From Candidatus Undivivens industriae (GTDB taxonomy: Bacteria > Omnitrophota > Gorgyraeia > Gygaellales > Profunditerraquicolaceae), in assembly GCA_012514745.1 (NCBI GenBank), contig JAAYZR010000025.1, forward strand, positions 18,930 through 82,929: a DNA stretch of 64,000 nt, given 5' to 3'. The position numbers and the translations under genes were made by a program. Below, one piece after another: positions 32,624-58,874 of this stretch. Each line of letters begins with the position of its first letter. The first letter of the stretch is position 1. The notes beneath the pieces were generated by a model, which was not told where the DNA came from, ran no database searches, and was given only the letters and a program-made list of their open reading frames with translations.

Positions 32624-34885
<2,262 letters not shown>

Positions 34886-34889
<4 letters not shown>

Positions 34890-36370: not shown

Positions 36371-36432
36371 GCTGTTCCTTAAGCAGCCCCGAAGAATGGG
36401 GCAGAATGATGTCCGCGGGGAAAAAGAAAACG

Positions 36433-38497: not shown

Positions 38498-38507
38498 AAG
38501 CGCTCTT

Positions 38508-39251: not shown

Positions 39252-39380
39252 ATCGATCCCCCCTTCAATTCAAAATATCGCTCCATAGCCTATCGCGCTT
39301 GTTATGGATAAAACAACCGCTATTGCTAAAACATTACGGATTCTTCCGGTATTTACTATGGACAACGAGCCGGACCGCTG

Positions 39381-45300: not shown

Positions 45301-48300
45301 CCGGTGCTCAACTCGAAGATTACCTGGCCGGTCTGTCCGTTCAGCGTGTCGTGCGGTTTCCAGGACATCTTGTCTTTGTTCCACATGGCGAAGGTATACG
45401 GCGTGCGTATAGAATTCCAGGTCGTGTAGCCGTTGCCGGACTCGGCGTAATAGTAACCGTTGGAACTGATCAACACGTCGTAACCGGCCTTGTAATTGGA
45501 ATTGTTTATGCCGGTGGAGACCTTGGCGTTGGGGTCGCAGATGCCGATGAAATGCCTGCCGGTCTTGTTGGCCGTCTGCCAGGTCACCTCGGTGGTGATA
45601 TCGTAATTCGGGCTGACGTTGGATTTCGCCTGCAGATAACCGTTATGCGCGACCTTGGCCACGCTGCGGCCGCCCTGCGTGGTATCGGTAAGGGTGAATC
45701 TCCAGAAAAGGCTGTTCAGAGAAACCTCGGCGGCATTATCGAAGGTGCCGCTGATGGAGGCGCTCGTGCCGCCGGTAACGGAAGAAGGCAGAACCGGCCC
45801 CGAGCTCAATTGGAATTTACAGGCGATATTGAACAGTGCCGCCGGCGCCGCGGAACTGGAAAAGAGCTGGTTATTGTTCTGGTCGAGGACTGCCCATGAC
45901 CAGGAATAAAGATGCCCTGCGGTCAGGCCGGAAGGCATAGTTATGGAAATATTGCTGATTGTGCTGGTCCCGACCGGTACATTGAAGGTGGTACTGTCTA
46001 TCTCCTGGAAAGATGCCCCTGTGTCCACATCGGTCAGCGTGAAACGGAATCTTAATCCGTTCATGGCTATGGAATAGTTGTTTGTAAAGGTGCCGCCGAT
46101 GGTAGTTATGACCTGCCCCGGCGCCACGTTCTTCTCCATAAAAGGACCGGCCGTCATTCTCAAAAGGTCGTGGTAAAGGGTGAACGGCTGCGCTATACTC
46201 TGCGCCTCCACCAGGGCGCCGTTGGGCCAGCGCAGTTCCCAGTACCAGTCATACGTCCTGCCCGCGACTATGCCGGAAGGGATAGCGACCGTGGTCGAGA
46301 CCGTGCTCGCGCCGGCGGAAAGGTTAAAAGGGCTGCTGTCCATACCGAAGATAGAGGAAATAGTGGTCAGGTTGCAATACTGCGAATCCCATTTGTCCAA
46401 TCCGGCGTCGAAATCATCGAAAAACTCGAAAACGCCGTCCCCGTCGCTAAGGCTGGCCGCGTCTGCCTTGCCGTAATACATATAGATGATCTTCTGCTCC
46501 GTGTACGGCAATACCGGTATCTTCACCCAGAAACGCGCCTCTTTCCCGGTATAAGAGAAAGATTCCGCGTAATAATTCAGCAGGGCGCTTCCGTCTCCGT
46601 CCACGAAACGCACATCCCCGCCGTCGGCCAGGCAGTGCAGCCAGAAATCCCTGTGGTTCTTGTCCACGTCCACCGCCACCTGGAAATCGGTGAGCTCTTG
46701 CGTGTTCAAGGTATTGTCTATCTTGATGGTCTCTTTGTAAAGCCAGCCGGCAAGAGCGGGGCCGTCCGCGGGTTCCTCTTTCGCCACCAGGTAGGTGGAG
46801 ATAAGGTGATTGAACTCCGTGGGTTTCAACACCGGGGTGATCGCCTCTCCGTAAGAACTGTAGGCGTAAACGGCGAACTTTTTCGTGCCGGTCAAATGAA
46901 GGTTGCGCCAGGTGCTCCCGGGATCGAGAGTAGCCATACCTCCCCTGGCCGAAAGGGTCAAAGTGGTGGGGGACGGGCTGATGTCCCCGGTGACGGTGAT
47001 ATTGTTGGCGCCTTCTTCATAATCTATGAGCTTCAGATAACGCGCGCCTCCGGTATTTATATAATAATCCTTGCCCACGCTCACCAGTGTATCGGCGCTC
47101 TGATAGATCTGCCCCTTGCCTCCGTTCATATCGTCTGCCACCGCGCACAGCGGCTTGTCGGCGCTCAAACGCGCGCGCAGGGTCATGGCGCTCCCGGAGT
47201 TCGGGATATGCCTGTAACTCTGCCCTTTGTTCAACGTGCCGCTGTAATCCCCGGTGACCCCGTCCAGATTGTCGAAAACGATGTTGGTGTTATCCTCATA
47301 GGCGGTAAAGGTAACGTTGGCGTCCGGGCAATAGAAATAATACTCCCGCATATCGGGAGAACGCATCTGCTCCGAGGAATCGCCGTGGCCGATCAGCCCG
47401 GCCTGGACCGTGACCGGCTTGGTCGCCTCTATATGCCAAACCTCGCCCCTGGAATCCACCCTGTTCCAGCCGAACCAGAAATTTCCGGCGTCAAGCGTCA
47501 GGGTGCCGGTATCGTCGCCCTTGCCGTAGTCGGTGATCTTGATCTGGGTATCGTCGTTGTAGGCGGTGATGATCACGTCCCCGTCGTAGTTGTAAGCCGG
47601 ACACCAAAGCCAGAGGTCGTTGCCGCTGGCGGTGTAGTAATCGTCGTCCGAGGTGCTGCTCGGTTCTATGGATGAGGCGAATAAGGTAATCGGTTTCTGG
47701 GAATAGACGTGGTAGCAGGTCAGCGCCGTGTCCGTGTATCTCTGCGTTTCTCCCACGGAGGTGAAGTCCAGGAAGGTGGATGCCACCACCTGGCCTTCGG
47801 CGTTCAGTTTCTCTATATAGACGCGGTTGGGGGCATCGGTGGAGATGATGTCGAGGAAAGTGAAGGTCAGGGCGTAGAAATCAGTGCCTATCATAGATTC
47901 CGCCAGACTGGCGTCCGATTCCGAAGTCGCGCTCCATTTACCGTATAACAGGTATATCTCTTTTGCCGTCCCCTGCGGGATACTCGGCACGGTGACCCAG
48001 CAGGAGGCGCTTTTTTTGTCCTTGCTGAAACCCATTACGCGGTATTTCAAAGGCGTTTTGCCGTCGGAATCGGTGAAACGGATGTCGGAGCCGTCGTCTG
48101 CCACATGGTCCCAGAAGTCTATGTCCGCCGAGGGGATCTCCACCTTGACGGTGGTATTTGCGTAGGAGGAGCTCCCCGATGTGTTATCTACCACGATCTT
48201 CTGCCGGTAGAGATAATCTGCCAGCACCTTGGAGAGTTTAGCCGTGCCTGCGGAAAGCACCACCTCGGAGGTGTTGGCGTATTCATAGGCATTCTCGAAG

Positions 48301-51300
48301 TCATAAGTAATTTCCTGCACTCCCTCCGGGCCCAGCCAGGAAGACCAGGCCCCGGGAGAACCGTTGGAATCAGGCGCGGTGCGCATCTGAAAACGGATGT
48401 CGGTACCGGAAGGCAGCGTGGAGGTCCAGAAAAGGCTTTTCAGCCTGTCGGTGGTAAAAGTGGTGTCGTAAGCAGTGGAGACAAGCGTTTCCTGCGCTGG
48501 ATACTTGTTATAATTTATGGTAATACTATCCATCTGCGGCGGGCTGGCAAGGTCGTAGCAGAAGAACCTAAGCCTGTATTGCAGGTATTTGTCCTTGTCG
48601 TTCACCGAGCTGTATGAGGACAGGTCCCTACCCTTGGTTATCTTGCCGGCGTATCCCCAGGCAATGGCGTCGGATAAGGAACTGTTGTTTCCGGTGCGCA
48701 CGCGCACCTCGATCTGCCCCTGGGAGTTATCCTGCCAGGTAACGGCACCGTATCCGGCGTTGTTGCCGATCTCCTTTATCTCCGAGGTGTATTCCCCGGA
48801 AGAAAACAGCAGATACTTCATCAGCGAATAGTTGCCGTATCCGCTGGAGACATAGATGTAATCACCGCTGCCGGGATACATGGCGTTGGCCTGTCCGTCC
48901 ATGGAAAAAGGCATATCCTCGTTCTTCTCCCAGGTATTACTGCTGATGGAATACCTGTAAAAATACGGGGTGCCATAGGCAATATCGTAATTATAGGAAA
49001 CAAAAAGATAGATATAGTCGCCGAACCCGGGGCTGAACAGGCTCGCTCCGACGTTGAGCATCGGCAGAACGGTCAATGTTGACCAGGTGTTGGCCACCGT
49101 ATCGTATTTCCAGAAAGCGGTGGAGCCGTTGCCCGGAGTAACGTAGATGTAATCCCCGCTTCCCGGATATACCAGGTTTGCTCCCAGAGCACAGGCGGAA
49201 GGAGCTGAAGCCACTTCCTTCCAGTCGTTGTTGGCGATCGAATACCTCCATAAGGTAGTGGTGGAACCGCCGCGCAGGACGTAAATATAACCGTCTTTAT
49301 ACTCGATCGCCTGGCCGGTGGAGAAAGTGGCGGGCGGGGCGGCGAGGTTGGTCCAGAGGTCGGTGCTCACCGTGTATTTCCAGAAATCGGAATAACCGCG
49401 CCCCCTGGTAACGTAGATGTCGTCTCCTGTGCCCGGGTAAACGCTCTTGGAATCGTAATAAACGCCCGAAGGCGTGGATTGCAGGGTGTACCACACCGAG
49501 GAAGAAAGATTGTATTTATAACAGGAGGTGGAGTTGCCGCCGCGCAGATAGAATACGTCGTCCCCGGAAGGCATCGGGCATATCGAGGCCCCGTAACTGG
49601 CGCTGGCAGGATAGACTATGGTTTCGTCCCACCTGTTCTGGCTGATGGAATAACGGTTGAAATTAGTGCCCAAATCTCCGTGCCCGGTGCCGAGATAGAA
49701 ATAAATGATATCACCGCTGCCCGGGTAATAACCGCCCGGCATACCGGAGACGGAAAGCGGGGCCTCGGTAAGAATAGTCCAGGAGTTCTGGCTTAAGGAA
49801 TACCTGGCGAAATCCCTGCCCCCGCCCTTCAGGCAGTAGAGATAATCCCCCGCGCCCGGATACATCAGATAACAATAATCGGCGATAGACCAGGGGGCGT
49901 CGGAGAGATATCCCCAGGTATCGCTGTCAATACTGTATTTAGTGAATTTGACCGCCCCGGCCTGTTTAAGCATATAAATACCTTTATACGGGCCGTCGGG
50001 GATGAGACAGGTGCCGTTGCCCTCACTGGAGATCCCCTCCAGCATCGAGGTAAGCGCGACCCAGGAACCGCCGGACTCGTCGTCAGTGAACTTGAGAAAA
50101 GTGGTGGAGTTATAGTACCCGGGGCAGACGTAGATACTGCTTTCGTCGCTGACCATACGCGCGCCATAGGTGAACATATAGGGGCTGGAATTTATCTGCA
50201 TCCAGATCCCGGTCTCGGTGTTGTATTTCCAGAAATTCTTGTTCATATTCCCTTCCGAGACATAGATGTAATCCCCGCTGCCCGGATAAACCGCCCTGTG
50301 CCCTGCCCCGTGCACGATAAAGGGGAGTTTTATAAGATTCACCCATTTTTTTCGGCTGATAGAGTATTTCCAGACGTAGTTCGACCATCTGTTCGAGAAG
50401 AGATACATATAATCGCCTTTTACCACCAGACTACCGGAGACGTTCCTGCCCGGCCCGAAGTTATAATTCACCAGCGGATTGTTCCACTCTCCTGTGGCAA
50501 AAGTATAAGTCTGCACTCCTCCATATCCGTAGTAACCTACGTTATACAACTTTGTGTCGCTGGCGCACAGCTTGCCTTTTTGAAACACCGGAGGGAAAAA
50601 AAGCGTCTGCCAGGAATTGGTGGATATATTGTATTTAAAGAAAGCTCTGCGAAATTCCAGGTTGCATGCCCCTCCCTCGCTGTAATAAATGGCGTTCTCG
50701 GAAGATGAATAAACGAGTCTCCCCTGGCATTGCGACCTCCAGCAGTCGGGAAGGTTGGCCCTGCGCTCCCAGGTACCGGTAGAGAGCCTGTAACTCATGA
50801 ACTCCGTGCGGGCACTGGCGCGGAACATATATATGTAATCCGAACCGTCGTAAGCGGCGCAGACCCCGGTCTGAAAGGTCCCGTAGGGATTGGTGCTCAC
50901 CGTGGCCCAGGCGCGGCCGGTTTTATCGTACCTGTATAGATTCGCGGTATAGGTGACCGTGCCGCCGGTATTATTCCTGCCTCCCAGACAATACACGTAA
51001 TCATCCGTAACCACCAGCCTATTCCCCCCATAAGCCAAGTTCTGCGGCAAGGCCGGCAGCTGTTCCCAGCTCTGGGATGTGAGACTATAGCGGGAAAATC
51101 CATCCTGCTCATACCCCTGGAGGCAATATATATAATCATCTCCCTGTTTATACCCCAGACATCCTCCTCTGTGGATTCCTAAAGTATTGCCGGCGAAAGT
51201 AACATCCGAAAGCTTCTCCCATTGAAAGGAGACTGCGGTATTGCTGGAATTGACGGGATTGAAAGTAAGGAAATACCGATAGAAGTTTCTGGTGCCTTCG

Positions 51301-52700
51301 CCCCTGGTCAGATAAATGGCGTCCTGCGAAGCCACATACACGGCATCGCCGCCGTAGCGCAGTTCAAAAGCCGCCGCCGACTCTTCCCTCCACTTCTTTT
51401 GCGCGGGATAATACCGGTAAGTGGAGCTGTAGCTGTGGTTGCTCAACAGGCGCAGTTCGCTGCCGCTGCCGTCCGGGTCGTAAATATACATCCTGCCATA
51501 GATGTAGAACGGCAGAGCCGGCATCTCCACGTTTTTGGCGAGCGTGGATGAATAAGCCGAACTCTCCCAGGTGTCGGAGCCTATGGAATATCTGCCGAAC
51601 CACCTGCCGGCGCCGTACCAAGAGTAAAGGTAGTCCCCGGAACCGGGATAGACCACATCGGAATCCCAAGTCTGGCCGGTGGGACAGTTGGAAAGCGTGG
51701 TCCAGGCGTTGGAGCCGGCGGTATAATCGAATTTGGCGAAAGTGACGGAACCGCCGCCCGCGGTAGCGTAGATATAGGGAGAATCGGCTTTGGGATAACA
51801 AAGAGAAGCGCCGACACCCACGGTAAAAGGCGCGGATTCCACCGCCGACCAGGAACCGGTGGCGTTGATGTCCAAAGGCATCACGAACCTGTAGAAGACC
51901 GAAGTGTTGTTGCCGCAAAAGGCGTATGCCCGGCCGATGGAAGACACGATAGCGATCGTCCCGCCGTAACCTACGGTGGAAGGGACGTTGGCCTTGACAT
52001 GCCAGGTATTGGTGGATATTTTATAAGCGTAAAACTCCTTGCGATTACCTCCTATCAAGGCATATATTACGTCGCTGCCGTCGTAAGCCAAAGCGGCTCC
52101 CTGGCCTGTGCTCACGGGTATGCTTTCCATCAATTCCCATTTCTCTTCGTCAATGGACCAACGGGCAAACGCCTTATTGTCGTTGCCGCACTGCCATAAG
52201 GAATAGATGTAATTCCCGGCCTTGACCAGCGGTGATGTCCTGCCCATATAAGGAGAGAAAGGAAGACTGGACCATTGGCCGAGAGAACTGCAGAAAGGGT
52301 CCTGGTAAACCGTGTTGATCTCTACCCTGGCGGAGGCGCCGCTGCCTCCGACCACCACGTTGTTTTTCGTCCCCAGGGAAAAGTCCGTATCCGTGTCGTC
52401 TGTCAGTGCGAGGGTCAGCGGAGACATCACCAACTTGCCCGTAACGCTGGTGGTAAGATTGGAGCTTTTGGAGGAATATTTGGTCCAGTTGCTCTTGTTG
52501 GTAGGGTGTTTGGCTGTATCGGTGGAGGCTCCGCCTCTCCAGTCGCCCTGGCTGAAGTTATAGTATTCTTCACAGAAGGCGCCGGAACAGAGACAAAGAG
52601 AACAGACCAGGAGCGCCGCCAGCGGCATTATCATTATCAATATTCCGGGGTATCCCCTTTTCTTCATCTCTATCTTTCCTTCAGCGCCATACTTACGCAT
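39381..52700 (-). CDS. Giant (4,439 aa) secreted multi-domain protein: beta-propeller blades, DUF2341-like regions, tandem Ig-like modules, coiled-coil C-terminus
   Basis: Uninterrupted 13.3-kb ORF with a signal-like N-terminus. It has more than 15 Kelch-like blades marked by (V/M)YPGSGDY(I/L)Y. Two regions carry D-x-RF-x-D-x-DG...L-x-Y motifs. At least 12 tandem modules of about 85 aa have the form TSPNGGE-W--G----ITW---G-------YS-D-G-TW--I------G-Y-W-VP. The last 300 aa or so are coiled coil. Its ATG overlaps the upstream radical SAM stop (ATGCGTAA). Confidence 0.8.
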   Translation of the reverse strand: MRKYGAEGKIEMKKRGYPGILIMIMPLAALLVCSLCLCSGAFCEEYYNFSQGDWRGGASTDTAKHPTNKSNWTKYSSKSSNLTTSVTGKLVMSPLTLALTDDTDTDFSLGTKNNVVVGGSGASARVEINTVYQDPFCSSLGQWSSLPFSPYMGRTSPLVKAGNYIYSLWQCGNDNKAFARWSIDEEKWELMESIPVSTGQGAALAYDGSDVIYALIGGNRKEFYAYKISTNTWHVKANVPSTVGYGGTIAIVSSIGRAYAFCGNNTSVFYRFVMPLDINATGSWSAVESAPFTVGVGASLCYPKADSPYIYATAGGGSVTFAKFDYTAGSNAWTTLSNCPTGQTWDSDVVYPGSGDYLYSWYGAGRWFGRYSIGSDTWESSAYSSTLAKNVEMPALPFYIYGRMYIYDPDGSGSELRLLSNHSYSSTYRYYPAQKKWREESAAAFELRYGGDAVYVASQDAIYLTRGEGTRNFYRYFLTFNPVNSSNTAVSFQWEKLSDVTFAGNTLGIHRGGCLGYKQGDDYIYCLQGYEQDGFSRYSLTSQSWEQLPALPQNLAYGGNRLVVTDDYVYCLGGRNNTGGTVTYTANLYRYDKTGRAWATVSTNPYGTFQTGVCAAYDGSDYIYMFRASARTEFMSYRLSTGTWERRANLPDCWRSQCQGRLVYSSSENAIYYSEGGACNLEFRRAFFKYNISTNSWQTLFFPPVFQKGKLCASDTKLYNVGYYGYGGVQTYTFATGEWNNPLVNYNFGPGRNVSGSLVVKGDYMYLFSNRWSNYVWKYSISRKKWVNLIKLPFIVHGAGHRAVYPGSGDYIYVSEGNMNKNFWKYNTETGIWMQINSSPYMFTYGARMVSDESSIYVCPGYYNSTTFLKFTDDESGGSWVALTSMLEGISSEGNGTCLIPDGPYKGIYMLKQAGAVKFTKYSIDSDTWGYLSDAPWSIADYCYLMYPGAGDYLYCLKGGGRDFARYSLSQNSWTILTEAPLSVSGMPGGYYPGSGDIIYFYLGTGHGDLGTNFNRYSISQNRWDETIVYPASASYGASICPMPSGDDVFYLRGGNSTSCYKYNLSSSVWYTLQSTPSGVYYDSKSVYPGTGDDIYVTRGRGYSDFWKYTVSTDLWTNLAAPPATFSTGQAIEYKDGYIYVLRGGSTTTLWRYSIANNDWKEVASAPSACALGANLVYPGSGDYIYVTPGNGSTAFWKYDTVANTWSTLTVLPMLNVGASLFSPGFGDYIYLFVSYNYDIAYGTPYFYRYSISSNTWEKNEDMPFSMDGQANAMYPGSGDYIYVSSGYGNYSLMKYLLFSSGEYTSEIKEIGNNAGYGAVTWQDNSQGQIEVRVRTGNNSSLSDAIAWGYAGKITKGRDLSSYSSVNDKDKYLQYRLRFFCYDLASPPQMDSITINYNKYPAQETLVSTAYDTTFTTDRLKSLFWTSTLPSGTDIRFQMRTAPDSNGSPGAWSSWLGPEGVQEITYDFENAYEYANTSEVVLSAGTAKLSKVLADYLYRQKIVVDNTSGSSSYANTTVKVEIPSADIDFWDHVADDGSDIRFTDSDGKTPLKYRVMGFSKDKKSASCWVTVPSIPQGTAKEIYLLYGKWSATSESDASLAESMIGTDFYALTFTFLDIISTDAPNRVYIEKLNAEGQVVASTFLDFTSVGETQRYTDTALTCYHVYSQKPITLFASSIEPSSTSDDDYYTASGNDLWLWCPAYNYDGDVIITAYNDDTQIKITDYGKGDDTGTLTLDAGNFWFGWNRVDSRGEVWHIEATKPVTVQAGLIGHGDSSEQMRSPDMREYYFYCPDANVTFTAYEDNTNIVFDNLDGVTGDYSGTLNKGQSYRHIPNSGSAMTLRARLSADKPLCAVADDMNGGKGQIYQSADTLVSVGKDYYINTGGARYLKLIDYEEGANNITVTGDISPSPTTLTLSARGGMATLDPGSTWRNLHLTGTKKFAVYAYSSYGEAITPVLKPTEFNHLISTYLVAKEEPADGPALAGWLYKETIKIDNTLNTQELTDFQVAVDVDKNHRDFWLHCLADGGDVRFVDGDGSALLNYYAESFSYTGKEARFWVKIPVLPYTEQKIIYMYYGKADAASLSDGDGVFEFFDDFDAGLDKWDSQYCNLTTISSIFGMDSSPFNLSAGASTVSTTVAIPSGIVAGRTYDWYWELRWPNGALVEAQSIAQPFTLYHDLLRMTAGPFMEKNVAPGQVITTIGGTFTNNYSIAMNGLRFRFTLTDVDTGASFQEIDSTTFNVPVGTSTISNISITMPSGLTAGHLYSWSWAVLDQNNNQLFSSSAAPAALFNIACKFQLSSGPVLPSSVTGGTSASISGTFDNAAEVSLNSLFWRFTLTDTTQGGRSVAKVAHNGYLQAKSNVSPNYDITTEVTWQTANKTGRHFIGICDPNAKVSTGINNSNYKAGYDVLISSNGYYYAESGNGYTTWNSIRTPYTFAMWNKDKMSWKPHDTLNGQTGQVIFELSTGDKLTYNAGYVAGPGLAIKPTIRSSSDAIYVDKIMVYKKAVVKPYVGFVFTETANPTGMEVYYTTNPVIQPVLGVFYDNNLTAFQEVNTIPLDTDIKYQVSCDGYNWHWWDGTAWKEVSGGFSQTNEAPEINNNLAAFQTKFPSGEFFFRAFLNSADGVGTPLLDTVSVFTTSEPTYYITPSGSLVNFLNSDIVNDRWVQYKAVLNSYGQETPVLQNVGFSYLDAVLTITSPNGGESLPIGTTVLITWTSQGIDGADNQVKIEYSTDGGSTWMLIVDNLANNGAYEWQVANNPSPNALIRVTSKKYSAIRDTSDAAFGIMGLILNSPNGGNQWEIGSTHNITWSSYGTVSNNLKIECSLDGGTTWLYPPVADQRINNGLYTWNIPNRESYISSVCLMRITDMNNTNITDRSNTVFSIVPKPSMTITSPVGGEVWKAGSAKDITWDNRGNVNPLVNVYYSVDSGSNWTLLQSSVSNTGTYACTVPNVLSSRVRIRIAETAVPPGRDTQAQMETASEGDFTITLPTIKLSSPNGSEKWVRGDTREIAWSSDGAIGENALRIEYSVDEEENWAAVSEDEADDGSYSWVIPQGAVGGNVKIRITDTSRPEVFDESDAYFEVLDKPIIVLVQPNGGEKTTIGAPYEVKWFTIGDALDDQFLTVYFSPDSGEHYEVISDQRPNNGSYFWIPPEVEISTARIKIKCDDSENFPWVEDSSDADFTIQKPQLTLTWPNGGESLYAAGTYSITWESVGSIGLNAIKLEYSVNGGSTWQMISGGLANSGSYSWKTADSPTSELKIRVSDDSQPGVKGESKNNNSIIAPSLTLTSPNGGELWVVGIDYPVTWTSVGDHNSISNNLVLQYSVNNGSTWKSIAGGIPNDGTYIWHIPNDISDNCKVRIYDYSRTATQDTSDAVFKISAPSITITTPNGGEAWPYGTNHEILWNIIGQVSDDVTITYSVNGGTTWLPVYSGPTNNHSYAWNVPENISSTCKIKIKDNEPPYIEDTTDTVFSIAYPIITVTRPNGGEILVVTDNENITWSTEGTVSNSLKIEYSRDNFVLDINEIADNVANTGVYIWRVPEVLSTVLRVRITDNSVPQITDKSNAGFSILPFPVVTIDSPNGGERWRIGTKHNITWHDNGGPLSNNLVLQYSVDGGSNWKPISGGVPNSGSYEWTIPEDYSVNAVVRITDNQRATTVDHSDAAFIIDYPKITITAPVSATSWAVGDPAVITWVSEGAVSDNLLLQYSTDNFITLETIGVGEANDGSYNWSVPDEPTNNMKIRIVDGNRPATIATSEAFNVLQYPQIAVTSPNGGEEYVVGDSVNITWTSKGLSINPLTIVYSSDNFATTHTIKTGAPNTGSYNWVIPDDTICVNTLKIKIYDPTRTVISDASNNNFRIRGGFNITYPAANIDWAVNEPRSVTWQTRGQIPNVKLDYSVDAGNTWTTIVTSTPNTGVYTWAPPDYHGQKALLKVSDPTDDTVYSVSPSFNIIYYRITWMVKDYDNMDNLQNLSVRDTWWSDPSATIICPVTQEYPYGHYTTFWSKEGYIERSTDWIADGNKSITLLLENSISAQIEWHVLLSTAYNSATDTISASSWLERRGKIVGLNDIDRADLTSATLSVYDGETLIKTLTSGTPDGNGAFWFTWADTGLTSGKTYFVKSTVVFRGSTYNSGASIDVTTELTAKGQTAILQNLQTQTATIQSQVTQDIPQKITQAKEEIREDTARILTATETDIPEKIEEERRQQETDIRSEILNRENSVRSGTDLVVRYRTYPGVQPTVDFYDPNNVQRVSKGVMTEVSGGIYEYTITVSSGWGRGDFTVVCSESTYGSLDAMIISVIRSDIEQIAGQVSAVLGTTSGLNNFSKVADTLSSQFAVIESALGKISKDLVDQVKEVAGSATDINSVYMQLVNIGRELKKVSTEQNVSLEKLLEVNEEKKSDMTYLKNKTQELKAVMDINQKMIDNIANKPVTQTWFEFK

Positions 52701-53562
52701 GAAAATACTCCGAACTCCCCGCCGGTTTCTTCTCTTCCAGGCCGGGGATACCGCAGGCGTCGGCCCTGCACTGCCTGCACTTCCTGAACTGGTTTATGCA
52801 AAGCTCACACGCGCTCCTGGCCTCCTGCAGCTCCACGCAGGTGGGAGGCCGCTTATCCTTCATCTGCGAGACCGGGATAAGCGGGATAATATTCATTATG
52901 TGCGCGCCCAGCGCCGAATACTCCTTGGCTATCGCAAAAACCTGCTGCTTGTTGATCTCCGGGATAAGCACGGTATTGACCTTCACCGTGAAGCCGGCCT
53001 TGACGGCTTTTCCGACCCCGTCCTTCTGCCGCTCTATGAGAAGCGCGGCGCCTTCTTCTCCTGTATATGTCTTACCTTTAAAGTTGACGAACCCGTATAT
53101 CTGCGCGCCTATTGCGGCATCGAGGGTATTGACGGTGACCGTGACCGTCCCCACCTTAAGTTCCTTCAATACGGCGATCTTATCCGCAAGCAGCAGCCCG
53201 TTGGTGGAGAGGCACTTCATCAGATCCGGATGGTGTTTCTCCATCAGCCTGAAAGTCTCGAAGGTCTCCTCGTTGGCCAGGGACTCTCCCGGCCCGGCTA
53301 TGCCGGCAACGGTTATACAGTATTTCCTGCGCGCCTCGCTCACTTTTTCCAGCGCCTCGGCCGGTGAAATTATCTTCTCCGACACCCCGGGCCTGTCTTC
53401 AGTCAGATTAAGAGAGCGCAGACAGTATTTACAGCCGATATTGCAGTCGCGCGCCACCGGAAGATGCACCCTGCCGTAGCGGGAATGCGCCGCCTCCGAG
53501 AAACAGGGGTGCCTGTCGAGAGAAAAGGTCTTTTTACGCAGGAACCTGCCGAGAATATTCAT
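52693..53562 (-). CDS. NifB-like radical SAM protein (radical SAM core only)
   Basis: RHPCFSEAAHSRYGRVHLPVARDCNIGCKYCLRSLNLTEDRPGVSE resembles the NifB N-terminus with a CxxxCxxC cluster motif. 289 aa with no NifX-like C-domain. The stop overlaps the giant gene start. Confidence 0.7.
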   Translation of the reverse strand: MNILGRFLRKKTFSLDRHPCFSEAAHSRYGRVHLPVARDCNIGCKYCLRSLNLTEDRPGVSEKIISPAEALEKVSEARRKYCITVAGIAGPGESLANEETFETFRLMEKHHPDLMKCLSTNGLLLADKIAVLKELKVGTVTVTVNTLDAAIGAQIYGFVNFKGKTYTGEEGAALLIERQKDGVGKAVKAGFTVKVNTVLIPEINKQQVFAIAKEYSALGAHIMNIIPLIPVSQMKDKRPPTCVELQEARSACELCINQFRKCRQCRADACGIPGLEEKKPAGSSEYFHA

Positions 53563-54137
53563 CTGACGGCCCCTCCGGATTTATATATGTAAAGCGCTCC
53601 CGTCAACACAAGTATGACCCCTCCCGCTCTTTTTATGACGTGCCTGTGCGGCGCCACCCTCCCCAGCAGACCGGCTGAAACAAATCCCAGAGAAAGATAG
53701 ACCGAAGAGCTTAAGGCGTAAGCCAGCGAAACAAGCATGCCCTGGAACAGCTTTGTGCCCAGTATCAAAGGCACAAGATAAATGTATTTTCTGCCGGGAT
53801 TCAGCATACCCCGCATAAGTCCCATCCCGAACCCCACCCTGCCCTGCAGAGAGCCGCCGTTTTTTTCCCGGTGATTCCCGACGGACAAAAGGGAATATAT
53901 CCCCATTGCGGCGACCGCTATGCCGAACAGCAGATTCACGGCCCTTTTATCTATAGTCAAAGAACGCCCCAGCAAAGCGACTATCAGGCCGAAAATGAGC
54001 AGACCGATCAGCCTGCCGAGAAGGAATTTCAGGCCCGCGTACCTGTCCGATAGAGTGAGCCCGAAAGCCAGGAATGGGCAGATGAACAGCCCTTCCGCGG
54101 ACAACCCTATCACCAGCGCCGTTAATATCCTCTCCAT
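53559..54137 (-). CDS. Polytopic membrane protein (about 6 TM), unknown function
   Basis: 192 aa, hydrophobic throughout. Overlaps the downstream radical SAM gene by 4 nt. Confidence 0.5.
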   Translation of the reverse strand: MERILTALVIGLSAEGLFICPFLAFGLTLSDRYAGLKFLLGRLIGLLIFGLIVALLGRSLTIDKRAVNLLFGIAVAAMGIYSLLSVGNHREKNGGSLQGRVGFGMGLMRGMLNPGRKYIYLVPLILGTKLFQGMLVSLAYALSSSVYLSLGFVSAGLLGRVAPHRHVIKRAGGVILVLTGALYIYKSGGAVR

Positions 54138-54155
54138 ACGCTCTGCCCGCCCTTT

Positions 54156-54695
54156 TCAATGGCACTTAAAACTCTCCACGATACCCCGGAATTCGCTTTT
54201 AGTGACCGTTCCCAGCAGATCCAGAAAAAGGAATTGCCTGCCGGTCTCCGGACAACTGAAGCGGCAAAGCAGTATCTCCTCTTCGGAAGACTTCCCGCAG
54301 GGGCGCGTAACGTTCACGCTCCCTTTCGAGAAAGATACCGCGTGCCCGTTTACCCGGGTCTCTTTATCATCCTCACGTTCTCCGGAAGAAAGCCTATACC
54401 TTTCCGCGGGGAAAAAAGACATTACCTCCTGTCTCTGTTTTCCCCAGGAAACGGCGAATAAACGCTCGAACATCCCCCGCTCTGTCGTGCTTACGAAGAT
54501 CACCGTCCCTTTCTCTTCGCCGCCTTCCACCGTTTCCGGAGGAAGGAACGCGGGGACTTCAAAACTTATGTTGCTGTCCTTCTTCCGATCTATCTGTCTC
54601 TTGTCGCCGGCTCCCGGAGCGTCCTGCGCGGCTAAAAGCAGAAAAACCAGGGACAAAAAGAACGTCCATGAGCTTCTGTATCCGGGGATTCTCAC
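54156..54695 (-). CDS. Secreted hypothetical protein
   Basis: Signal peptide WTFFLSLVFLLLAAQDAPGA. The GTG start overlaps the stop of the upstream HUH gene (GTGA). Confidence 0.45.
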   Translation of the reverse strand: MRIPGYRSSWTFFLSLVFLLLAAQDAPGAGDKRQIDRKKDSNISFEVPAFLPPETVEGGEEKGTVIFVSTTERGMFERLFAVSWGKQRQEVMSFFPAERYRLSSGEREDDKETRVNGHAVSFSKGSVNVTRPCGKSSEEEILLCRFSCPETGRQFLFLDLLGTVTKSEFRGIVESFKCH

Positions 54696-55678
54696 TTCTT
54701 CCCGCCTTTTGCCTTTTCTCTTTCTTCCGTGAGTTCTTTCACCTTCTGTTTCTCTATATCAAGGCGCTTCTGCATCGCCTGATAGGATACCAGGTCGGCG
54801 CGGTACAATTCCTGCAGGTCCTTCTTGATGAATTCCCTGTCCTTCATCAACCTTTCGCTGTACTCCATATCCTTACGGCGAGAGATGTTTTTAAGCCTGT
54901 TTTTCAGATTGACCTGCACGATCAGCAGCGAAACGGCGATAACACAGAAAACCGGGATAAGCATCTTCGCCCGGCGCAGGGAGACCTCGTTTTCGCCGTG
55001 CGCTCCGGCCGCGGCGGAAGTTTTCTCGCTCTCGACTTCCGCTCTCACTTTAGCCACGAAATCATCGCTGCCGAGGATGTTCTTCCTGACCAGCTCTTTA
55101 CCGAGCGCTTCCATCTCCGGAGCCGAAAGAAACCCCATATATTCCGGATACGTCAAAGGCGCGTCTGCGGCCTGCGACAAAAGCGCTTCCATTTCCCTGC
55201 GCTCCGCCTGCATATCGAAAAGACTGCCCTGCCCTTGCCCGGCGAATGCCCGATAACTGCTGAATTCATAGGCCCCGGGATCATCGGCAAACCCCAGTTT
55301 GCAAGGGTTCTTGTGCATATACGCGCTTACCCCGGGTAAATAACCGCTTTTTTCCAGAATGGTGATCTTCGCCCTTTCCTGGAGAAGATGCCCTTTCCTG
55401 CCGTAACGGGAATTGAAATATTTGGTGTAATTGGAGTTCAAGGCGTGCATTATCCGGGAAACCGTGCATCCCTCCCTGGGCTCGATAAGCAGATGCACGT
55501 GGTTCGGAAGCAGAACAAAAGAAAACACCCTGCAGCCGAACTGTTCTTTATATTTTCTTAATAATTCAATGTATGTCCGAAAGTCCCGGCTGTCTTTGAA
55601 AATGACTTCTTCATTATCTCCGCGGGAGGTAACGTAATAAACGGAGCCCTCGATGTAAATGCGTGGTATCTTCTCCAT
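54692..55678 (-). CDS. HUH/Y1 transposase-like (IS200/RAYT-like) domain protein with C-terminal TM + coiled-coil extension
   Basis: The N-terminal 150 aa carry YYVTSRG, HuH motif LLPNHVHLL and tyrosine motif AYMHKNPCKLGFADDPGAYEFSSYRAF. A TM segment LIPVFCVIAVSLLIVQ and a K/E-rich coiled coil follow. GAGGAGTG SD precedes the chosen ATG(55678). Confidence 0.6.
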   Translation of the reverse strand: MEKIPRIYIEGSVYYVTSRGDNEEVIFKDSRDFRTYIELLRKYKEQFGCRVFSFVLLPNHVHLLIEPREGCTVSRIMHALNSNYTKYFNSRYGRKGHLLQERAKITILEKSGYLPGVSAYMHKNPCKLGFADDPGAYEFSSYRAFAGQGQGSLFDMQAERREMEALLSQAADAPLTYPEYMGFLSAPEMEALGKELVRKNILGSDDFVAKVRAEVESEKTSAAAGAHGENEVSLRRAKMLIPVFCVIAVSLLIVQVNLKNRLKNISRRKDMEYSERLMKDREFIKKDLQELYRADLVSYQAMQKRLDIEKQKVKELTEEREKAKGGKK

Positions 55679-55716
55679 TTTCACTCCTCTATGCGTGGCA
55701 CGCCGCCGCAAAACAT

Positions 55717-55743
55717 AAAAAAAACCGGGCAGTCCTGCCCGGG
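55717..55743 (-). terminator. Intrinsic terminator (candidate riboswitch expression platform)
   Basis: Minus-strand CCCGGGCAGGACUGCCCGG followed by U8. Lies about 30 nt after the aptamer-like segment and 27 nt upstream of the RBS/ATG at 55678. Confidence 0.7.
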
Positions 55744-55774
55744 ATCGTCAAATCAAGCATATCCCAAGTCTTCG

Positions 55775-55862
55775 GCAGTCTGCCGTTCCTTATAAACAGC
55801 CAAGGAAGCATGACTTTGCGCCCTCCGGTTACCCGGAGTTTGCCTTTTCGGATCGAGATACA
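55775..55862 (-). ncRNA. c-di-GMP-I (GEMM)-like riboswitch aptamer
   Basis: Minus strand: AAAAGGCAAAC-UCCGGGUAACCGGAG-GGCGCAAAGUC-AUGCUUCCUUGGCUGUUUAUAAGGAAC-GGCAGAC. This parallels the Vibrio cholerae Vc2 aptamer, whose sequence is given here from memory: GGGCAAACC, a P2 hairpin with GNRA tetraloop, GACGCAAAGCC, a P3 hairpin, then GGUAGC. Confidence 0.55.
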
Positions 55863-55876
55863 ATCTACCTGTATAA

Positions 55877-55904
55877 AGTATACCACAAATAGCGCTTTTA
55901 TCAA
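55877..55904 (-). promoter_or_regulatory. Extended -10 sigma70-like promoter driving the riboswitch leader
   Basis: Minus strand TTGATA-16 nt-TATACT, with TG immediately upstream of the -10 hexamer (TGGTATACT). The predicted TSS is near 55870. Confidence 0.45.
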
Positions 55905-56087
55905 TCCAGCGGCGTTCGCCCGGATCTCTTTCGGGATATTCTCCCAATATCCCGGAAAAACGGACTTGAACGCCTCCCAATACGCCCAGATCTCCAGAAG
56001 TGGTGCCCGGCCGCGCTCCCATTTAAAAGAAACCCCCTATAAGTAGTGCGCTGTTGAAAATTTATGTTACACTACGGTAACTGCTAT

Positions 56088-57017
56088 TCAGCTCGCGGTG
56101 ATAATGTCGAAGAAACTCCTGATCCTCGCCTTCAAATCCTCATATCCCTTCTCTTCCAACAGGTTCTTGGACAACAGCCTGTTTTCGAAAACCTGCCTGT
56201 TCCCGTTCACGGTCCGGATCGCGAAAAGATATCTGCCGGCGAAATTGTATTTTTTGGTCACGGTGACCGCGATCACGAAATTGTCCTTATCGAATACGCC
56301 GTTCACGTCTTCGACCACGATAGCCAGCAGATAATTCTTCTTTATAAGCAGCGGAAAGGCCGTGGAAATGGGCAGGGTCATGTCTCTCTCTTTGTCCTCA
56401 ACAAAACCCACGTTGGCCATCCGCTCATGGAACAGATAGTCCTCGAATTCATCAAGCCTGCCGTAACGGTGAAAAGAAGGATCCAGCACGAAAATATCGT
56501 TGTCGCCCCGCGCCCCGCCGGCCGGCGTTATGAACAGTACCATGTGAGTGGCTTTCGGGGTCTGGAAATAACCGGACTGCACGGCGCGCGCGAACTGGAT
56601 ATCATAGGCGTCCCCGAACAGAGGCTTGACGTACTTATAGGTATAAGAAGCGAGCTCGCCGCAGGTGCCGTATCTGCCGCCTTCCAGGATAAGATTCCCG
56701 TCCTCGCCGAAACGATGTATATTGCGGACTGTCCAGAGCCTGTTTTCAGGGTCTATGCTCACGGAAACGTCTTTCTGTTCCAGCATCGGCAAACCGGAAT
56801 ATACCAGTTTCTCGATGATGCCCTCCACTTCTTTCCGAAAAGGCGGAACTGCCTCCGACTGTTTATACGATCTATCCACTTCCGGAGTCACGCGGGAGGA
56901 GAGGATGAACCATATTAGGCCGGCGACCGCCGCTGAAAGAAAAAAACAAAGCCATTTCAAAACACGTTCCTTTCTCCGCATCCGCGCGATGATGATTTTT
57001 TCCTGCTGGGAATTCAA
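56088..57017 (-). CDS. Membrane-anchored transglutaminase-like cysteine peptidase-fold protein
   Basis: N-terminal TM, then GRYGTCGELASYTY (candidate Cys), THMVLFI (His) and VLDPSF (Asp) in transglutaminase-core order. Confidence 0.4.
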   Translation of the reverse strand: MNSQQEKIIIARMRRKERVLKWLCFFLSAAVAGLIWFILSSRVTPEVDRSYKQSEAVPPFRKEVEGIIEKLVYSGLPMLEQKDVSVSIDPENRLWTVRNIHRFGEDGNLILEGGRYGTCGELASYTYKYVKPLFGDAYDIQFARAVQSGYFQTPKATHMVLFITPAGGARGDNDIFVLDPSFHRYGRLDEFEDYLFHERMANVGFVEDKERDMTLPISTAFPLLIKKNYLLAIVVEDVNGVFDKDNFVIAVTVTKKYNFAGRYLFAIRTVNGNRQVFENRLLSKNLLEEKGYEDLKARIRSFFDIITAS

Positions 57018-57036
57018 GTTTCTCTCCTCTCGACTG

Positions 57037-57387
57037 TCATTTTACCGCAGCCGCCGCAGGCCCCTTCAAGGCGGGTGCGGACGGCTTGTTTTTCTTTTTT
57101 TTCGCTGCGGCTTCCGCTTCAAGCTCCGACCGGATCTCCCGAAAAAGATCCTTTTCTCTTTCCAGCTCTTTGGCTTTTCTGCCGTATTCTTCCGTGAAGG
57201 CCCGGTGTTCCCGCGAGAGGTCTTTTACGAAAGCGTCCCTCGCCTCTTTCAGCTTCGCGGCATGTTTCGCTTTCGCGATACCGTCTATATTACCGATCTT
57301 CACCGCCGTGATGATGCAGGAAAAGAGCAGATACGCAAAACAGGCGGCTGTTAGAACGGCAATAATTTTCATCTTATGTATCCGCAT
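57037..57387 (-). CDS. Small membrane-anchored coiled-coil protein
   Basis: 116 aa with an N-terminal TM and a K/E/A-rich tail. Confidence 0.4.
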   Translation of the reverse strand: MRIHKMKIIAVLTAACFAYLLFSCIITAVKIGNIDGIAKAKHAAKLKEARDAFVKDLSREHRAFTEEYGRKAKELEREKDLFREIRSELEAEAAAKKKKNKPSAPALKGPAAAAVK

Positions 57388-57556
57388 ATCTCACCGGAAT
57401 CCATGCTGGGGCGCGGACAATATGGCCGCCGCTCGCTGTTCATTTTAGCGCGGCGTCAAATCTCGCTGATCCGACGGCGCGCAGTTTACTCCCCTCGCCC
57501 GGAAATCCCGGAGCTTGAAGCCCGGGGAGTTTCATTGTTGAACCGGGAAAACTCCG

Positions 57557-58249
57557 TTATTTGAGTCTTTCGATCGCCGCGCGGATATCCCCGGCTTCGG
57601 AGGCGTCCGGTTTCAACTCCAGGTACTTACTATAGTGCTCCACCGCCTTCTCCGGGTCCTGTCTGAAGGCGTCGTAAACAACGGCAAGATTGTAATGGGC
57701 GTCGGCGTTGGACGGATCCAATTCAAGAGAACGCCGGTAGGCCTCGACCGCCTCGTCATAATATCCGGCGCCGGTATAAGCCACCCCGAGATTATAACTA
57801 TAAACGGAGCGTTCCTGTTTTATATGTTTCTGCAAAAGTAACAAGCCCTGCTGAGCTTTTTGCGCGGTATTGACGTAATTGCCGCTTTTCTTCAACTCCC
57901 CCCTGGTCTCCTCCAGCTGGCTCTTCAACAACCGCAGGTCGTTCTCCTTTTCGCTTATGCTCTGCTGGAACGCTTTCAGGTTTTTCTGCAGTGTTTCGTT
58001 GTCGTTCTGAAGTTTCGTGCTCAACGACAGGTAGGACACCGAGTCGCTCTGCAGGCGTTCGTTTTCTTTCTCTACCTTCTCTCTCTCGGCCTGCATCACG
58101 GCCAATTCTTCCTGCGCCTTCTGCATCATTTTATTCAGCTGGCCGAGCTGGCCGGTAAGATACACGTTCTTCGAATAAATACCCACCCCGATTCCCAGCG
58201 ATATTGCCAGCACCATACCCGCGGCGGCGATCAACAGTATTTTTTTCAT
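57557..58249 (-). CDS. TPR-repeat protein with N-terminal TM and coiled coil
   Basis: Signal/TM at the N-terminus, a long Q/E/L-rich coiled coil and C-terminal TPRs (AYNLGVAYTGAGYYDEAVEAYRRSLELDP...). Confidence 0.6.
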   Translation of the reverse strand: MKKILLIAAAGMVLAISLGIGVGIYSKNVYLTGQLGQLNKMMQKAQEELAVMQAEREKVEKENERLQSDSVSYLSLSTKLQNDNETLQKNLKAFQQSISEKENDLRLLKSQLEETRGELKKSGNYVNTAQKAQQGLLLLQKHIKQERSVYSYNLGVAYTGAGYYDEAVEAYRRSLELDPSNADAHYNLAVVYDAFRQDPEKAVEHYSKYLELKPDASEAGDIRAAIERLK

Positions 58250-58818: not shown

Positions 58819-58849
58819 TCCCACCTCCACAGCGAAACAAAGCCGCTCT

Positions 58850-58874
58850 AATTCCGGGGACACAATACTTAATT
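58850..58874. repeat. REP-like repeat copy
   Basis: AATTCCGGGGACACAATACTTAATT lies about 32 nt upstream of the TPR gene start and about 65 nt downstream of the secretin stop. Confidence 0.6.

Follow-up and report, generated by a model that had tools for sequence, protein, structure and literature searches.

The window, a stretch of 64,000 nucleotides from Candidatus Undivivens industriae, carries a single tight operon on its minus strand. As an earlier sequence-only reading of this DNA had described, the operon encodes a HUH/Y1 transposase-like protein, a secreted protein, a membrane protein, a NifB-like radical SAM enzyme and a giant secreted protein. At its head lies a c-di-GMP-I class (GEMM-I) riboswitch aptamer (55770..55853, minus strand), for which the best model is the GGC variant (RF03167; 60.4 bits with a gathering score of 59, E 9e-12). 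The same aptamer class is found at the same position, upstream of a Y1_Tnp-like gene, in 7/7 related giant-type loci, and thus in 8/8 loci when the window is included; three of the seven related aptamers score best on the canonical RF01051 (50.7-69.5 bits, gathering score 35). An intrinsic terminator (55717..55742, minus strand; CCGGGCAGGACTGCCCGG followed by T8) would serve as the expression platform. Just upstream of the riboswitch, a promoter-like site (55877..55904, minus strand; TTGATA-16 nt-TATACT with an extended -10 TG) is the top-scoring minus-strand site in 39000..57500, with 10/12 matches, and should be regarded as a consensus match only.

The first gene, encoding the HUH/Y1 transposase-like protein (54692..55678, minus strand), likely starts with the ATG at 55678, while the mechanical ORF (54692..55711) reaches a TTG at 55711. 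The protein presents a RAYT-like N-terminal domain (PF01797, E 3e-11; NF047646, E 2e-18) and one TM helix at about residues 245-272 of the 339-aa ORF, followed by a coiled-coil tail; its relatives are annotated at 324-328 aa. All genes preceding the enzyme had been described as joined by 4-nt overlaps. The gene identities hold, as do the GTGA overlap between the HUH gene and the gene of the 179-aa secreted protein and the ATGA overlap between the membrane-protein stop and the NifB-like start, but the secreted-protein and membrane-protein genes are separated by an 18-nt gap.

The last gene (39381..52667, minus strand) encodes a giant secreted protein of about 4,428 aa from its conserved start, with a signal peptide, Kelch propellers, DUF2341, Kre9_KNH Ig-like and Reelin-type repeats and a coiled-coil C-terminus. 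The NifB-like TAA stop had been read as overlapping the giant-gene ATG. The string ATGCGTAA is indeed present (TAA 52695..52693, ATG 52700..52698), its ATG arising where CAT GCG encodes the His-Ala of EYFHA, the conserved NifB-like C-terminus. However, as the frame of this ATG meets a TAA after 6 codons in L026 (96% identical), as the ATG is missing in L029 (CACGCGTGA) and as the downstream start ATGAAGAA (MKKRG/MKNR..., signal peptide) is common to all relatives, the junction is most likely a 25-nt spacer with the giant start at 52667, and the overlap ATG is probably not functional. In the relatives, GAAGGAAAG stands ahead of the conserved start, and in the NCBI annotation of L007 the giant gene begins 25 nt past the NifB-like stop. 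Coupling to the giant gene by overlap was an artefact of choosing the longest ORF; the two genes are nonetheless co-operonic.

The operon is surrounded by T2SS/T4P-like genes. Upstream, the minus strand encodes a secretin (58941..60839), a T2SSC-like protein (60874..61491) and an ExeA-like AAA ATPase (61498..62343), accompanied by two TPR proteins (57557..58863), and these upstream genes occur in the same order in L007, L014, L017, L018, L021 and L026. Downstream, on the same strand, are a T2SSE ATPase (30921..32612), a T2SSF protein (29699..30919), a PilM/PilN fusion (27784..29184), a pseudopilin (26050..26670) and a T2SSK-like protein (25236..26090).

Family identity of the NifB-like enzyme

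NifB builds the iron-sulfur-carbon core of nitrogenase and is a radical SAM enzyme that forms an 8Fe core by joining a pair of [4Fe-4S] clusters. The ORF at 52693..53562 (minus strand, 289 aa, ATG start) is real and is a genuine NifB relative in a bacterium of the candidate phylum Omnitrophota. The NifB-type N-terminus reported for it (HPCFSEAAH...VARDCNIGCKYC) is found in the protein, which, as had also been stated, is a radical SAM core only. It matches Pfam PF04055, and as its alignment to TIGR01290 (NifB; 265.8 bits) covers only profile positions 9-277 of 441, the NifX domain is absent. This score is under the equivalog cutoff of 343.65, as are those of genuine minimal methanogen NifBs (288-303). 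In phmmer searches, the protein matched the NifB of M. thermautotrophicus over its full length (PDB 7BI7; E 7e-84, residues 16-277) and Methanothrix NifB (E 1e-77). Placement among NifB, MoaA and SPASM families, which had been proposed as a check, thus yields a NifB type. MoaA identity was rejected (61.6 bits versus 265.8 for NifB), as was a SPASM peptide maturase (22-36 bits on peptide-maturase models with cutoffs of 380-650).

The closest known systems are the minimal, NifX-less archaeal NifBs of M. thermautotrophicus (PDB 7BI7, 7JMA, 7JMB) and Methanothrix thermoacetophila (6Y1X). They share with the window enzyme a length of about 290 aa, a gap-free end-to-end alignment, the CX3CX2C motif, the K1 Cys/His/Cys set, the K2 CxxC with its His and the loop Glu. 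The window enzyme differs in its bacterial host, in a Thr where the M. thermautotrophicus enzyme has C52 and in its coupling to membrane and periplasmic tri-Cys genes. In a neighbor-joining tree, the membrane-associated NifB-like proteins without the loop cysteine form one clade apart from methanogen NifB. The classical bacterial NifB-NifX fusion (the TIGR01290 equivalog) has a homologous radical SAM core, whereas the window enzyme has no NifX domain, no nif neighborhood and a score under the equivalog cutoff. The Desulfuromonadaceae-type modules preserve the bacterial loop motif DCANESRPGV, and a NifX-like protein is encoded there by a gene of its own.

Metal cluster ligands

Ligand assignments and MthNifB numbering were taken from PMC8179604 and 10.1101/2023.10.20.563283. 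The window enzyme retains the RS cluster ligands C40/C44/C47, the K1 ligands C20/H33/C117, the K2 ligands C262/C265 with H26, and the loop E55. The sole ligand lost is the flexible-loop cysteine (MthNifB C52, MaNifB C63), which is Thr54 in the window enzyme and T/V/I/A/N/F across the NifB-like clade. Initially assigned to K1, this cysteine was seen in the Methanothrix structure to coordinate the RS cluster as its fourth ligand. As it is replaced in the whole clade, the chemistry may differ from that of NifB. From the conserved ligands, we infer that the enzyme would bind RS, K1 and K2 clusters and make a NifB-co-like Fe-S(-C) cluster and, as all K-cluster ligands are kept, that its substrate would be its own cluster pair.

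One alternative is an ordinary NifB that matures a Nif, Mar or Nfl-type enzyme (nitrogenase or nitrogenase-like) encoded elsewhere in the genome, with the gene location functionally meaningless. Strong full-length similarity and the complete K1/K2/RS set fit this, as do the NifX-like genes adjoining the module in several loci and, outside Omnitrophota, a PF00148 nitrogenase-component-1-type gene 6 kb from the module in L046. Nonetheless, in agreement with the first reading of the sequence, the 40 window ORFs scanned yielded no nitrogenase-type Pfam family. Nor was a Nif-type family found in the Omnitrophota loci, where called genes or scanned ORFs were covered as far as 10 kb to either side. 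A literature search pairing Omnitrophota or Omnitrophica with NifB or nitrogenase terms yielded nothing on either in this phylum. The control by a c-di-GMP-class riboswitch rather than in a nitrogen-regulated nif cluster, the translational coupling to the membrane protein in about 25 loci and the separate clade without the loop cysteine also argue against an ordinary NifB, which we consider rather improbable.

For bacterial NifB, nitrogenase maturation is stated to be the only known role, while in methanogens, including those lacking nitrogenase, NifB is universal and essential (10.1101/2023.10.20.563283). The non-diazotrophic methanogen enzymes resemble the window enzyme in their complete ligands and nitrogenase-free context, implying that a NifB-type cluster is used for something other than nitrogenase. 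The window case differs in being bacterial, with a well-defined, conserved module of genes under riboswitch control. The gene could be of archaeal origin with a nitrogenase-independent housekeeping cofactor role, its envelope neighbors being incidental. In favor of this, the nearest matches from named organisms beyond the clade are NifBs of methanogens and ANME (52-55% identity), the only exception being one Altiarchaeota sequence at 56%. However, a c-di-GMP riboswitch would not be expected ahead of a housekeeping gene, nor would a coupling to one pair of envelope proteins that persists from phylum to phylum, and we find such a role rather doubtful.

Membrane and secreted partners

The 192-aa polytopic membrane protein (53559..54137, minus strand) is a divergent DsbD_2 protein (UreH/CcdA/TauE-like), whose relatives exceed the Pfam DsbD_2 cutoff. 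A single conserved cysteine (C20) lies in TM1, and the sequence contains the motifs RGxLNPGRK and YALSSSVYL. The family is rare, being represented by 108 clusters in a set of 5.8e9 proteins and by 112 representatives in one of 1.84e9, and structure search with the AF2 model (pLDDT 78.6) gave no significant match in the PDB. With CcdA/DsbD thiol-disulfide transporters and UreH/TauE-like permeases (DsbD_2, LysE-type superfamily), it shares the DsbD_2 match and a TM1 Cys-Pro motif. The second redox cysteine is, however, replaced (NPGRK versus TPC[MA]K in distant fused relatives), which precludes an electron relay of the classical two-cysteine kind.

The 179-aa protein (54156..54695, minus strand) is secreted or anchored; its beta-rich fold is PsbP/Mog1-like, and three of its cysteines are conserved (C133 in a PCG motif, C148, and C178 in a C-terminal KCH). 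With its AF2 model (pLDDT 84.9), Foldseek found PsbP and Apa (E about 1e-3, TM 0.45-0.5). It is homologous to a 175-185-aa Desulfuromonadaceae-type protein (hhalign probability 99%, E 5e-18).

Conservation of the gene neighborhood

Comparison of about 25 loci shows that the constant neighbors of the NifB-like gene are the DsbD_2-like membrane protein and the secreted PsbP-like tri-Cys protein, not the giant gene. The membrane gene is directly upstream in every Omnitrophota-type locus that reaches far enough (L007, L009, L012, L014, L015, L017-L021, L023, L026-L031, L033, L036-L043, L048, L049; in L037, a NifX-like gene stands between). For 17 NifB-like database clusters, the longest contig is equally long as that of a membrane-protein cluster. 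PF02579 NifX-like genes occur alongside the membrane protein in L022, L024, L037 and L047.

The module is found without a giant gene in L012, L013, L015, L016, L023, L024, L036 and L045-L047. The full trio lies among pseudopilin genes in other Omnitrophota (L012, L015, L023), beside gyrB/dnaN on an unassigned contig (L036) and in Desulfuromonadaceae-type loci (L024, L045-L047), which also carry TonB receptors and NifX-like proteins. A giant gene follows the NifB-like gene in one Omnitrophota clade only. The conserved adjacency that had been proposed as a check is thus kept across that clade, but not in other loci with the same trio. Within Omnitrophota, the module always occurs in pilus/T2SS-like or giant-gene loci, and a functional tie to the apparatus or the giant protein is therefore possible.

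The tie suggested earlier was post-translational modification of the giant protein, or cofactor chemistry on it, by the radical SAM enzyme; this would take place before or during export. Consistent with this, both genes lie in one operon under one riboswitch, and a homologous giant gene follows in all giant-type loci, even as NifB-like proteins fall to 60% identity and giant proteins to about 29-30%. Radical SAM/SPASM peptide maturases, too, can be encoded immediately upstream of a secreted protein. However, they act on a short precursor, while the putative substrate here is 4.4 kaa, and only generic radical SAM core matches were obtained; profile search found no SPASM, twitch, RRE or other peptide-recognition domain in the enzyme. 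Together with the retained K1/K2 ligands, this makes chemistry on a 4,400-aa polypeptide unlikely. Moreover, at least five other contexts contain the trio with no giant gene present, 1-3 unrelated small genes separate enzyme and giant gene in L009, L014, L017 and L048, and the overlap-based coupling is spurious. Giant orthologues have a common N-terminal domain (F.Q.DW.GG.S...H..N..GW), but the N-terminal cysteine cluster shows no conservation among the giant homologues compared. Direct modification is thus unlikely, and we leave it only a slim chance.

A proposed membrane-spanning metallocluster module

The explanation that we prefer, giving it about an even chance of being correct, is that the enzyme belongs to a new bacterial NifB subfamily, acting in a membrane-spanning metallocluster or metal-trafficking module that was recruited into a c-di-GMP-controlled giant-adhesin/T2SS-like operon. 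The enzyme would make a NifB-co-like cluster in the cytoplasm. As its two partners, the coupled inner-membrane protein and the periplasmic tri-Cys protein, lie in and beyond the membrane, the three-gene module would span it. The partners may supply metal or sulfur species to the enzyme or send its product outward. TonB-dependent receptors are importers, and because the non-Omnitrophota versions add such receptors and cytoplasmic NifX-like carriers, inward supply is favoured. In the Omnitrophota lineage, the module appears to have been built into an operon that begins with the riboswitch and terminator, ends with the giant Kelch/DUF2341 surface protein and sits inside a T2SS/type-IV-pilus-like locus. 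It would thus be switched together with the adhesion/secretion apparatus, leaving the giant protein chemically unmodified. The partners would point to a non-nitrogenase job for NifB in bacteria.

The locus resembles the Omnitrophota giant genes of West-Roberts et al. (10.1101/2023.11.21.568195) in that a giant secreted protein is flanked by secretin, GspE/F-like and pseudopilin genes, although the window giant is smaller (4.4 kaa), has a Sec signal and is of Kelch/DUF2341 type. A term search of that work found no mention of NifB or a riboswitch, and its one match to 'radical' comes from the name of a Pfam domain in the legend of a supplement. Links to c-di-GMP are seen in both cases, as PilZ genes were noted in the giant loci of that study.

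The NifB-like enzyme

The 289-aa ORF at 52693..53562 (-) is genuine: it opens with ATG, has the NifB-type N-terminus quoted in the sequence-only reading and carries the radical-SAM motif CNIGCKYC. That reading had also described the protein as a radical SAM core only, and Pfam indeed finds just this core. Against TIGR01290, the NCBIfam model of NifB, the protein scores 265.8 bits over profile positions 9-277 of 441, which is below the equivalog cutoff of 343.65 bits. As genuine NifX-less methanogen NifBs, taken as a control, score 288-303 bits and likewise miss the cutoff, the sub-threshold score is uninformative; the cutoff reflects the absent NifX domain. Earlier work has described NifBs that lack NifX and the occurrence of NifB in methanogens without nitrogenase (10.1101/2023.10.20.563283). 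Other radical SAM families were rejected on score. MoaA (GTP 3',8-cyclase), named earlier as a grouping that would count against a special role, reaches only 61.6 bits as compared to 265.8 for NifB and to a TIGR02666 cutoff of 284. The WgkB, FlmE and TrsS models of SPASM peptide maturases give 22-26 bits where the cutoffs are 490-650, and the viperin, HpnH and AhbD families stay at noise level. The SPASM domain itself (PF13186) has no match in the protein.

Residues 16-277 align without a gap to two solved structures, those of M. thermautotrophicus NifB (MthNifB, 7BI7; residues 14-275, E 7e-84) and of Methanothrix NifB (E 1e-77). Ligands were assigned according to PMC8179604, from which the K1 numbering is taken, and 10.1101/2023.10.20.563283. 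The CX3CX2C cysteines of the RS cluster (C40, C44 and C47) are invariant in all 130 of the 130 aligned sequences. The K1 ligands C20, H33 and C117 (MthNifB C18, H31 and C115), the K2 ligands C262 and C265 with H26 (MthNifB C260, C263 and H24) and the loop glutamate E55 (MthNifB E53) are kept as well, and the RS, K1 and K2 ligands and E55 are all essentially invariant across these homologues. The sole exception among the ligands is the flexible-loop cysteine (C52 in MthNifB, C63 in the archaeal MaNifB numbering), which is Thr54 here; this cysteine is absent from the whole membrane-protein-associated Omnitrophota clade and present in all aligned methanogen NifBs. By sequence, the enzyme belongs to the NifB family with a complete K-cluster ligand set, and it would fuse two [4Fe-4S] clusters into an 8Fe core, possibly one that contains carbide.

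The nearest homologues come from Candidatus Omnitrophota MAGs (60-93% identity). Outside this group we found one Altiarchaeota sequence at 56% identity, and the next nearest organism-named sequences are methanogen and ANME NifBs at 52-55%. In a neighbour-joining tree, the NifB-like proteins that are associated with the membrane protein and have no loop cysteine group in a single clade, apart from the methanogen NifBs, all of which retain that cysteine.

A conserved three-gene module

To place the gene in context, we considered about 25 distinct loci (L numbers), which were collected by exact-protein look-ups together with a genome scan and a metagenome scan with the membrane protein, and were annotated by BLAST and Pfam. 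Their constant feature is the membrane protein gene (192 aa, 53559..54137 (-) in the window) followed by the NifB-like gene, usually with an overlap of 4 nt; in L037, a NifX-like gene stands between the two. The gene of the secreted tri-Cys protein (PCG ... C ... KC[HS]-COOH; 179 aa, 54156..54695 (-)) is usually found upstream of this pair. In addition, 17 NifB-like database clusters have a longest contig of the same size as that of a membrane-protein cluster, which provides independent support for the gene pair.

The pair or trio was seen in four contexts. In the giant type (window, L007, L009, L014, L017-L021, L026-L029, L040, L041, L048 and L049), the order is riboswitch, Y1_Tnp/TM protein, tri-Cys protein in some cases, membrane protein, NifB-like gene, 0-3 small ORFs and a giant gene of 4.3-7.3 kaa, always inside a secretin/TPR/AAA locus. 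The small ORFs between the NifB-like and giant genes of L009, L014, L017 and L048 were rejected as core components, since tblastn found no counterpart in the window. In the pseudopilin type (L012, L013, L023, L015, L016, L039 and L043), the trio lies among N_methyl pseudopilins and an ABC transporter and, in L012 and L023, ends its transcription unit. In L036, the trio is found beside gyrB and dnaN. The non-Omnitrophota type is complete in L024 (6322-16409) and L025, from a Desulfuromonadaceae MAG, and in L045/L046 (932-10575) and L047 (1-9215), and comprises a TonB-dependent receptor, a NifB-like gene with the bacterial DCANESRPGV loop, an FGE-sulfatase-like lipoprotein, the tri-Cys protein, the membrane protein, a YtkA or He_PIG/cytochrome c lipoprotein and a cytoplasmic NifX-like protein; a TonB gene also lies near the trio in these loci. 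L032 and L034 share the periplasmic and membrane genes of this type, with no NifB-like gene found within the available sequence. In L022, from a Fibrobacterota MAG, the membrane protein gene overlaps a NifX-like gene. The idea that the NifX-like neighbours are periplasmic was rejected, as their N-termini have no signal peptide, which makes them cytoplasmic. Judged by gene content, the non-Omnitrophota loci look like an uncharacterised metal or cofactor acquisition locus.

The module of three genes, spanning the membrane, is thus conserved across phyla. The adjacency to a giant gene, on which the sequence-only reading had built, is kept in one clade and limited to it; elsewhere the module occurs without a giant gene. 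The same reading was right that nitrogenase genes are absent from the 64-kb window, and the called genes or scanned ORFs of the Omnitrophota loci, which cover up to 10 kb per side, include none of the nifHDK/nifEN type. L046 has a PF00148 gene, of the nitrogenase-component-1 type, 6 kb away.

The membrane protein appears to be a divergent member of DsbD_2 (PF13386), for which the window copy itself, at 21 bits, is under the gathering score of 24.9, while the L022 and L024 orthologues reach 31.0 and 29.6 bits. The family is very small; a set of 5.8 billion proteins contains 108 clusters of it, and one of 1.84 billion contains 112 representatives. CcdA/DsbD thiol-disulfide transporters have two conserved redox cysteines, in TM1 and TM4, whereas the membrane protein keeps only the Cys-Pro motif of TM1 (C20) as its sole conserved redox cysteine. 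At the TM4 position it has NPGRK in place of the TPC of distant fused relatives, so it is not a classical two-cysteine relay of the CcdA type, and the TPC retained in these relatives suggests that the window family has lost one of two ancestral redox cysteines. Four of the distant relatives (database proteins P0327, P0330, P0331 and P0332) carry an N-terminal fusion to an extracytoplasmic domain, about 200-270 aa long, and the N-terminal domains of these and of P0298 match no Pfam family. The AF2 model of the membrane protein (pLDDT 78.6) has no significant structural neighbour in the PDB. For the tri-Cys protein, the AF2 model (pLDDT 84.9) shows likeness to the PsbP/Mog1/Apa fold at borderline significance, and the Omnitrophota and non-Omnitrophota tri-Cys proteins are homologous (hhalign probability 99%, E 5e-18).

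A riboswitch at the head of giant-type operons

Window 55717..55904 (-) holds a good promoter-like site, an aptamer of the c-di-GMP-I (GEMM-I) clan at 55770..55853 (-) and, directly upstream of the Y1_Tnp-like gene, a strong intrinsic terminator (stem + T8). The aptamer scores 60.4 bits on RF03167, the GGC variant model (E 9e-12), barely over the gathering score of 59; no paper that we found names the ligand of this variant. For the orthologous leaders, the scores are 50.7-69.5 bits with RF01051 (gathering score 35) or 59.7-60.3 bits with RF03167, and three of these leaders fit the canonical model, RF01051, better. The same aptamer class was present at the same position in 7 of the 7 independent giant-type loci tested (8 of 8 with the window): L007 7729-7812, L009 7823-7899, L014 7668-7743, L017 8233-8313, L018 6778-6861, L029 2357-2445 and L048 5627-5726. 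It was present in none of the seven other loci tested, namely two of the pseudopilin type, L036, L022 and three of the non-Omnitrophota type. The giant-type clade therefore has a conserved predicted riboswitch. As aptamer and terminator lead the operon and are conserved in giant-type loci, expression of all its genes, that of the NifB-like enzyme included, is most likely governed by a second messenger, as in many adhesin and pilus operons.

The junction with the giant gene

The 4-nt overlaps that had been claimed upstream of the NifB-like gene are present between the membrane protein and NifB-like genes (ATGA) and between the Y1_Tnp-like and tri-Cys genes (GTGA), while the tri-Cys and membrane protein genes are 18 nt apart. 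The NifB-like stop was also said to overlap the ATG of the giant gene (39381..52667 (-)), which was read as coupling. The string ATGCGTAA is found at this junction, but its ATG arises from the codons for His-Ala in the conserved C-terminus EYFHA*. In L026 (96% identity), the overlapping frame reads ATG CGT AAG TAT GAC GCT TAA, and L029 has no overlapping ATG. A downstream ATG is common to all relatives, is preceded by a GAAGGAAAG-type Shine-Dalgarno sequence and opens a signal peptide (MKKRGYPG.../MKNRIY...); the NCBI annotation of L007 starts the giant gene at this same ATG. Because the overlapping frame fails in L026 and L029 and the relatives share the downstream ATG with its Shine-Dalgarno sequence, the giant gene most likely starts at 52667, 25 nt past the NifB-like stop, and the overlap coupling is, on this comparison, an artefact of ORF calling.

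This bears on the proposal that the NifB-like enzyme modifies the giant protein. As the module exists without giant genes elsewhere, has no hallmark of peptide maturases and is not coupled in the manner claimed, we judge such modification unlikely. A run of cysteines after the signal peptide of the giant protein (C33, C36, C38 and C43) was considered as a cluster site and rejected, since it is not found in L014, L009, L017 and L048.

Possible functions

NifB acts as gatekeeper in the synthesis of the nitrogenase cofactor; recent methanogen genetics reportedly point to a second role, essential and still undefined. In bacteria, NifB is known from nitrogenase maturation only (10.1101/2023.10.20.563283). 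That the enzyme studied here is an ordinary NifB serving nitrogenase is improbable, as this fits poorly with the regulation and with the invariant partners.

The membrane and periplasmic partners may supply metal or sulfur species to the enzyme, or may carry its product. We lean towards inward supply, as the non-Omnitrophota versions come with TonB-dependent importers and with NifX-like carriers in the cytoplasm. A bolder reading, which we hold to be quite improbable, is that a NifB-made Fe-S(-C) cluster or precursor is trafficked across the inner membrane and switched by c-di-GMP together with the giant adhesin. The carriers would be the dedicated single-Cys DsbD_2-like protein and the periplasmic tri-Cys PsbP-like protein. 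Export would serve an extracytoplasmic acceptor, possibly the adhesion/secretion apparatus; alternatively, metalloclusters would be salvaged from prey. Salvage is conceivable because methanogens depend on NifB and are among the cells on which Omnitrophota have been reported, or predicted, to prey. If true, cluster trafficking would be the first role of a bacterial NifB outside nitrogenase and, in any organism, the first linked to the envelope, and a module that truly moves metal or cluster across the membrane would represent a new kind of Fe-S trafficking.

This compact bacterial NifB subfamily offers a tractable handle on the non-nitrogenase role of NifB, with complete K-cluster ligands, no nif genes in the window or in the sequenced flanks of related loci, two obligatory partners that lie across the membrane from it and a conserved riboswitch. 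Omnitrophota giant genes beside T2SS-like loci are known (10.1101/2023.11.21.568195). Term searches found no mention of NifB or a riboswitch in that work, and neither in a second Omnitrophota giant-protein preprint, where the two radical-SAM matches are Pfam domain listings. Literature on Omnitrophota with NifB or radical SAM, and on 'NifB-like' with membrane, yielded no description of the module. The c-di-GMP-class riboswitch and the metallocluster module are two previously unreported components of these loci.

Other genes of the giant-type loci

The giant proteins of the window, L007, L009, L014, L017, L029 and L048 share an N-terminal module, F.Q.DW.GG.S....H..N..GW..Y.SK, with overall identity down to about 29% and lengths of 4.3-7.3 kaa. 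In all giant-type loci, the operon opens with a gene (33-93% identity; 54692..55711 (-) in the window) for a RAYT/IS200-like HUH-Y1 domain with intact HVHLLI and YMHKNP motifs, to which a single TM helix and a long coiled coil are joined; a membrane-anchored 'transposase' domain within a secretion operon is odd and unexplained. Close to the secretin in L017 (1-1578) and L048 (2745-5295), two of the more distant members of the giant type, there are two more radical SAM genes, one with SPASM; they, and not the NifB-like gene, would naturally be considered for a role in modifying peptides or proteins. The stretch at 37700..39251 (-), immediately downstream of the giant gene, codes for a 247-aa protein without a family match and a Peptidase_MA_2 (zinc metalloprotease-like) protein, both of them possible accessories of the giant protein. 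Between the giant gene with these two downstream genes and the T2SSE/T2SSF genes lies a gene set for an F-type ATP synthase (b/delta-like fusion, alpha, gamma and beta; 32624..37161 (-)).
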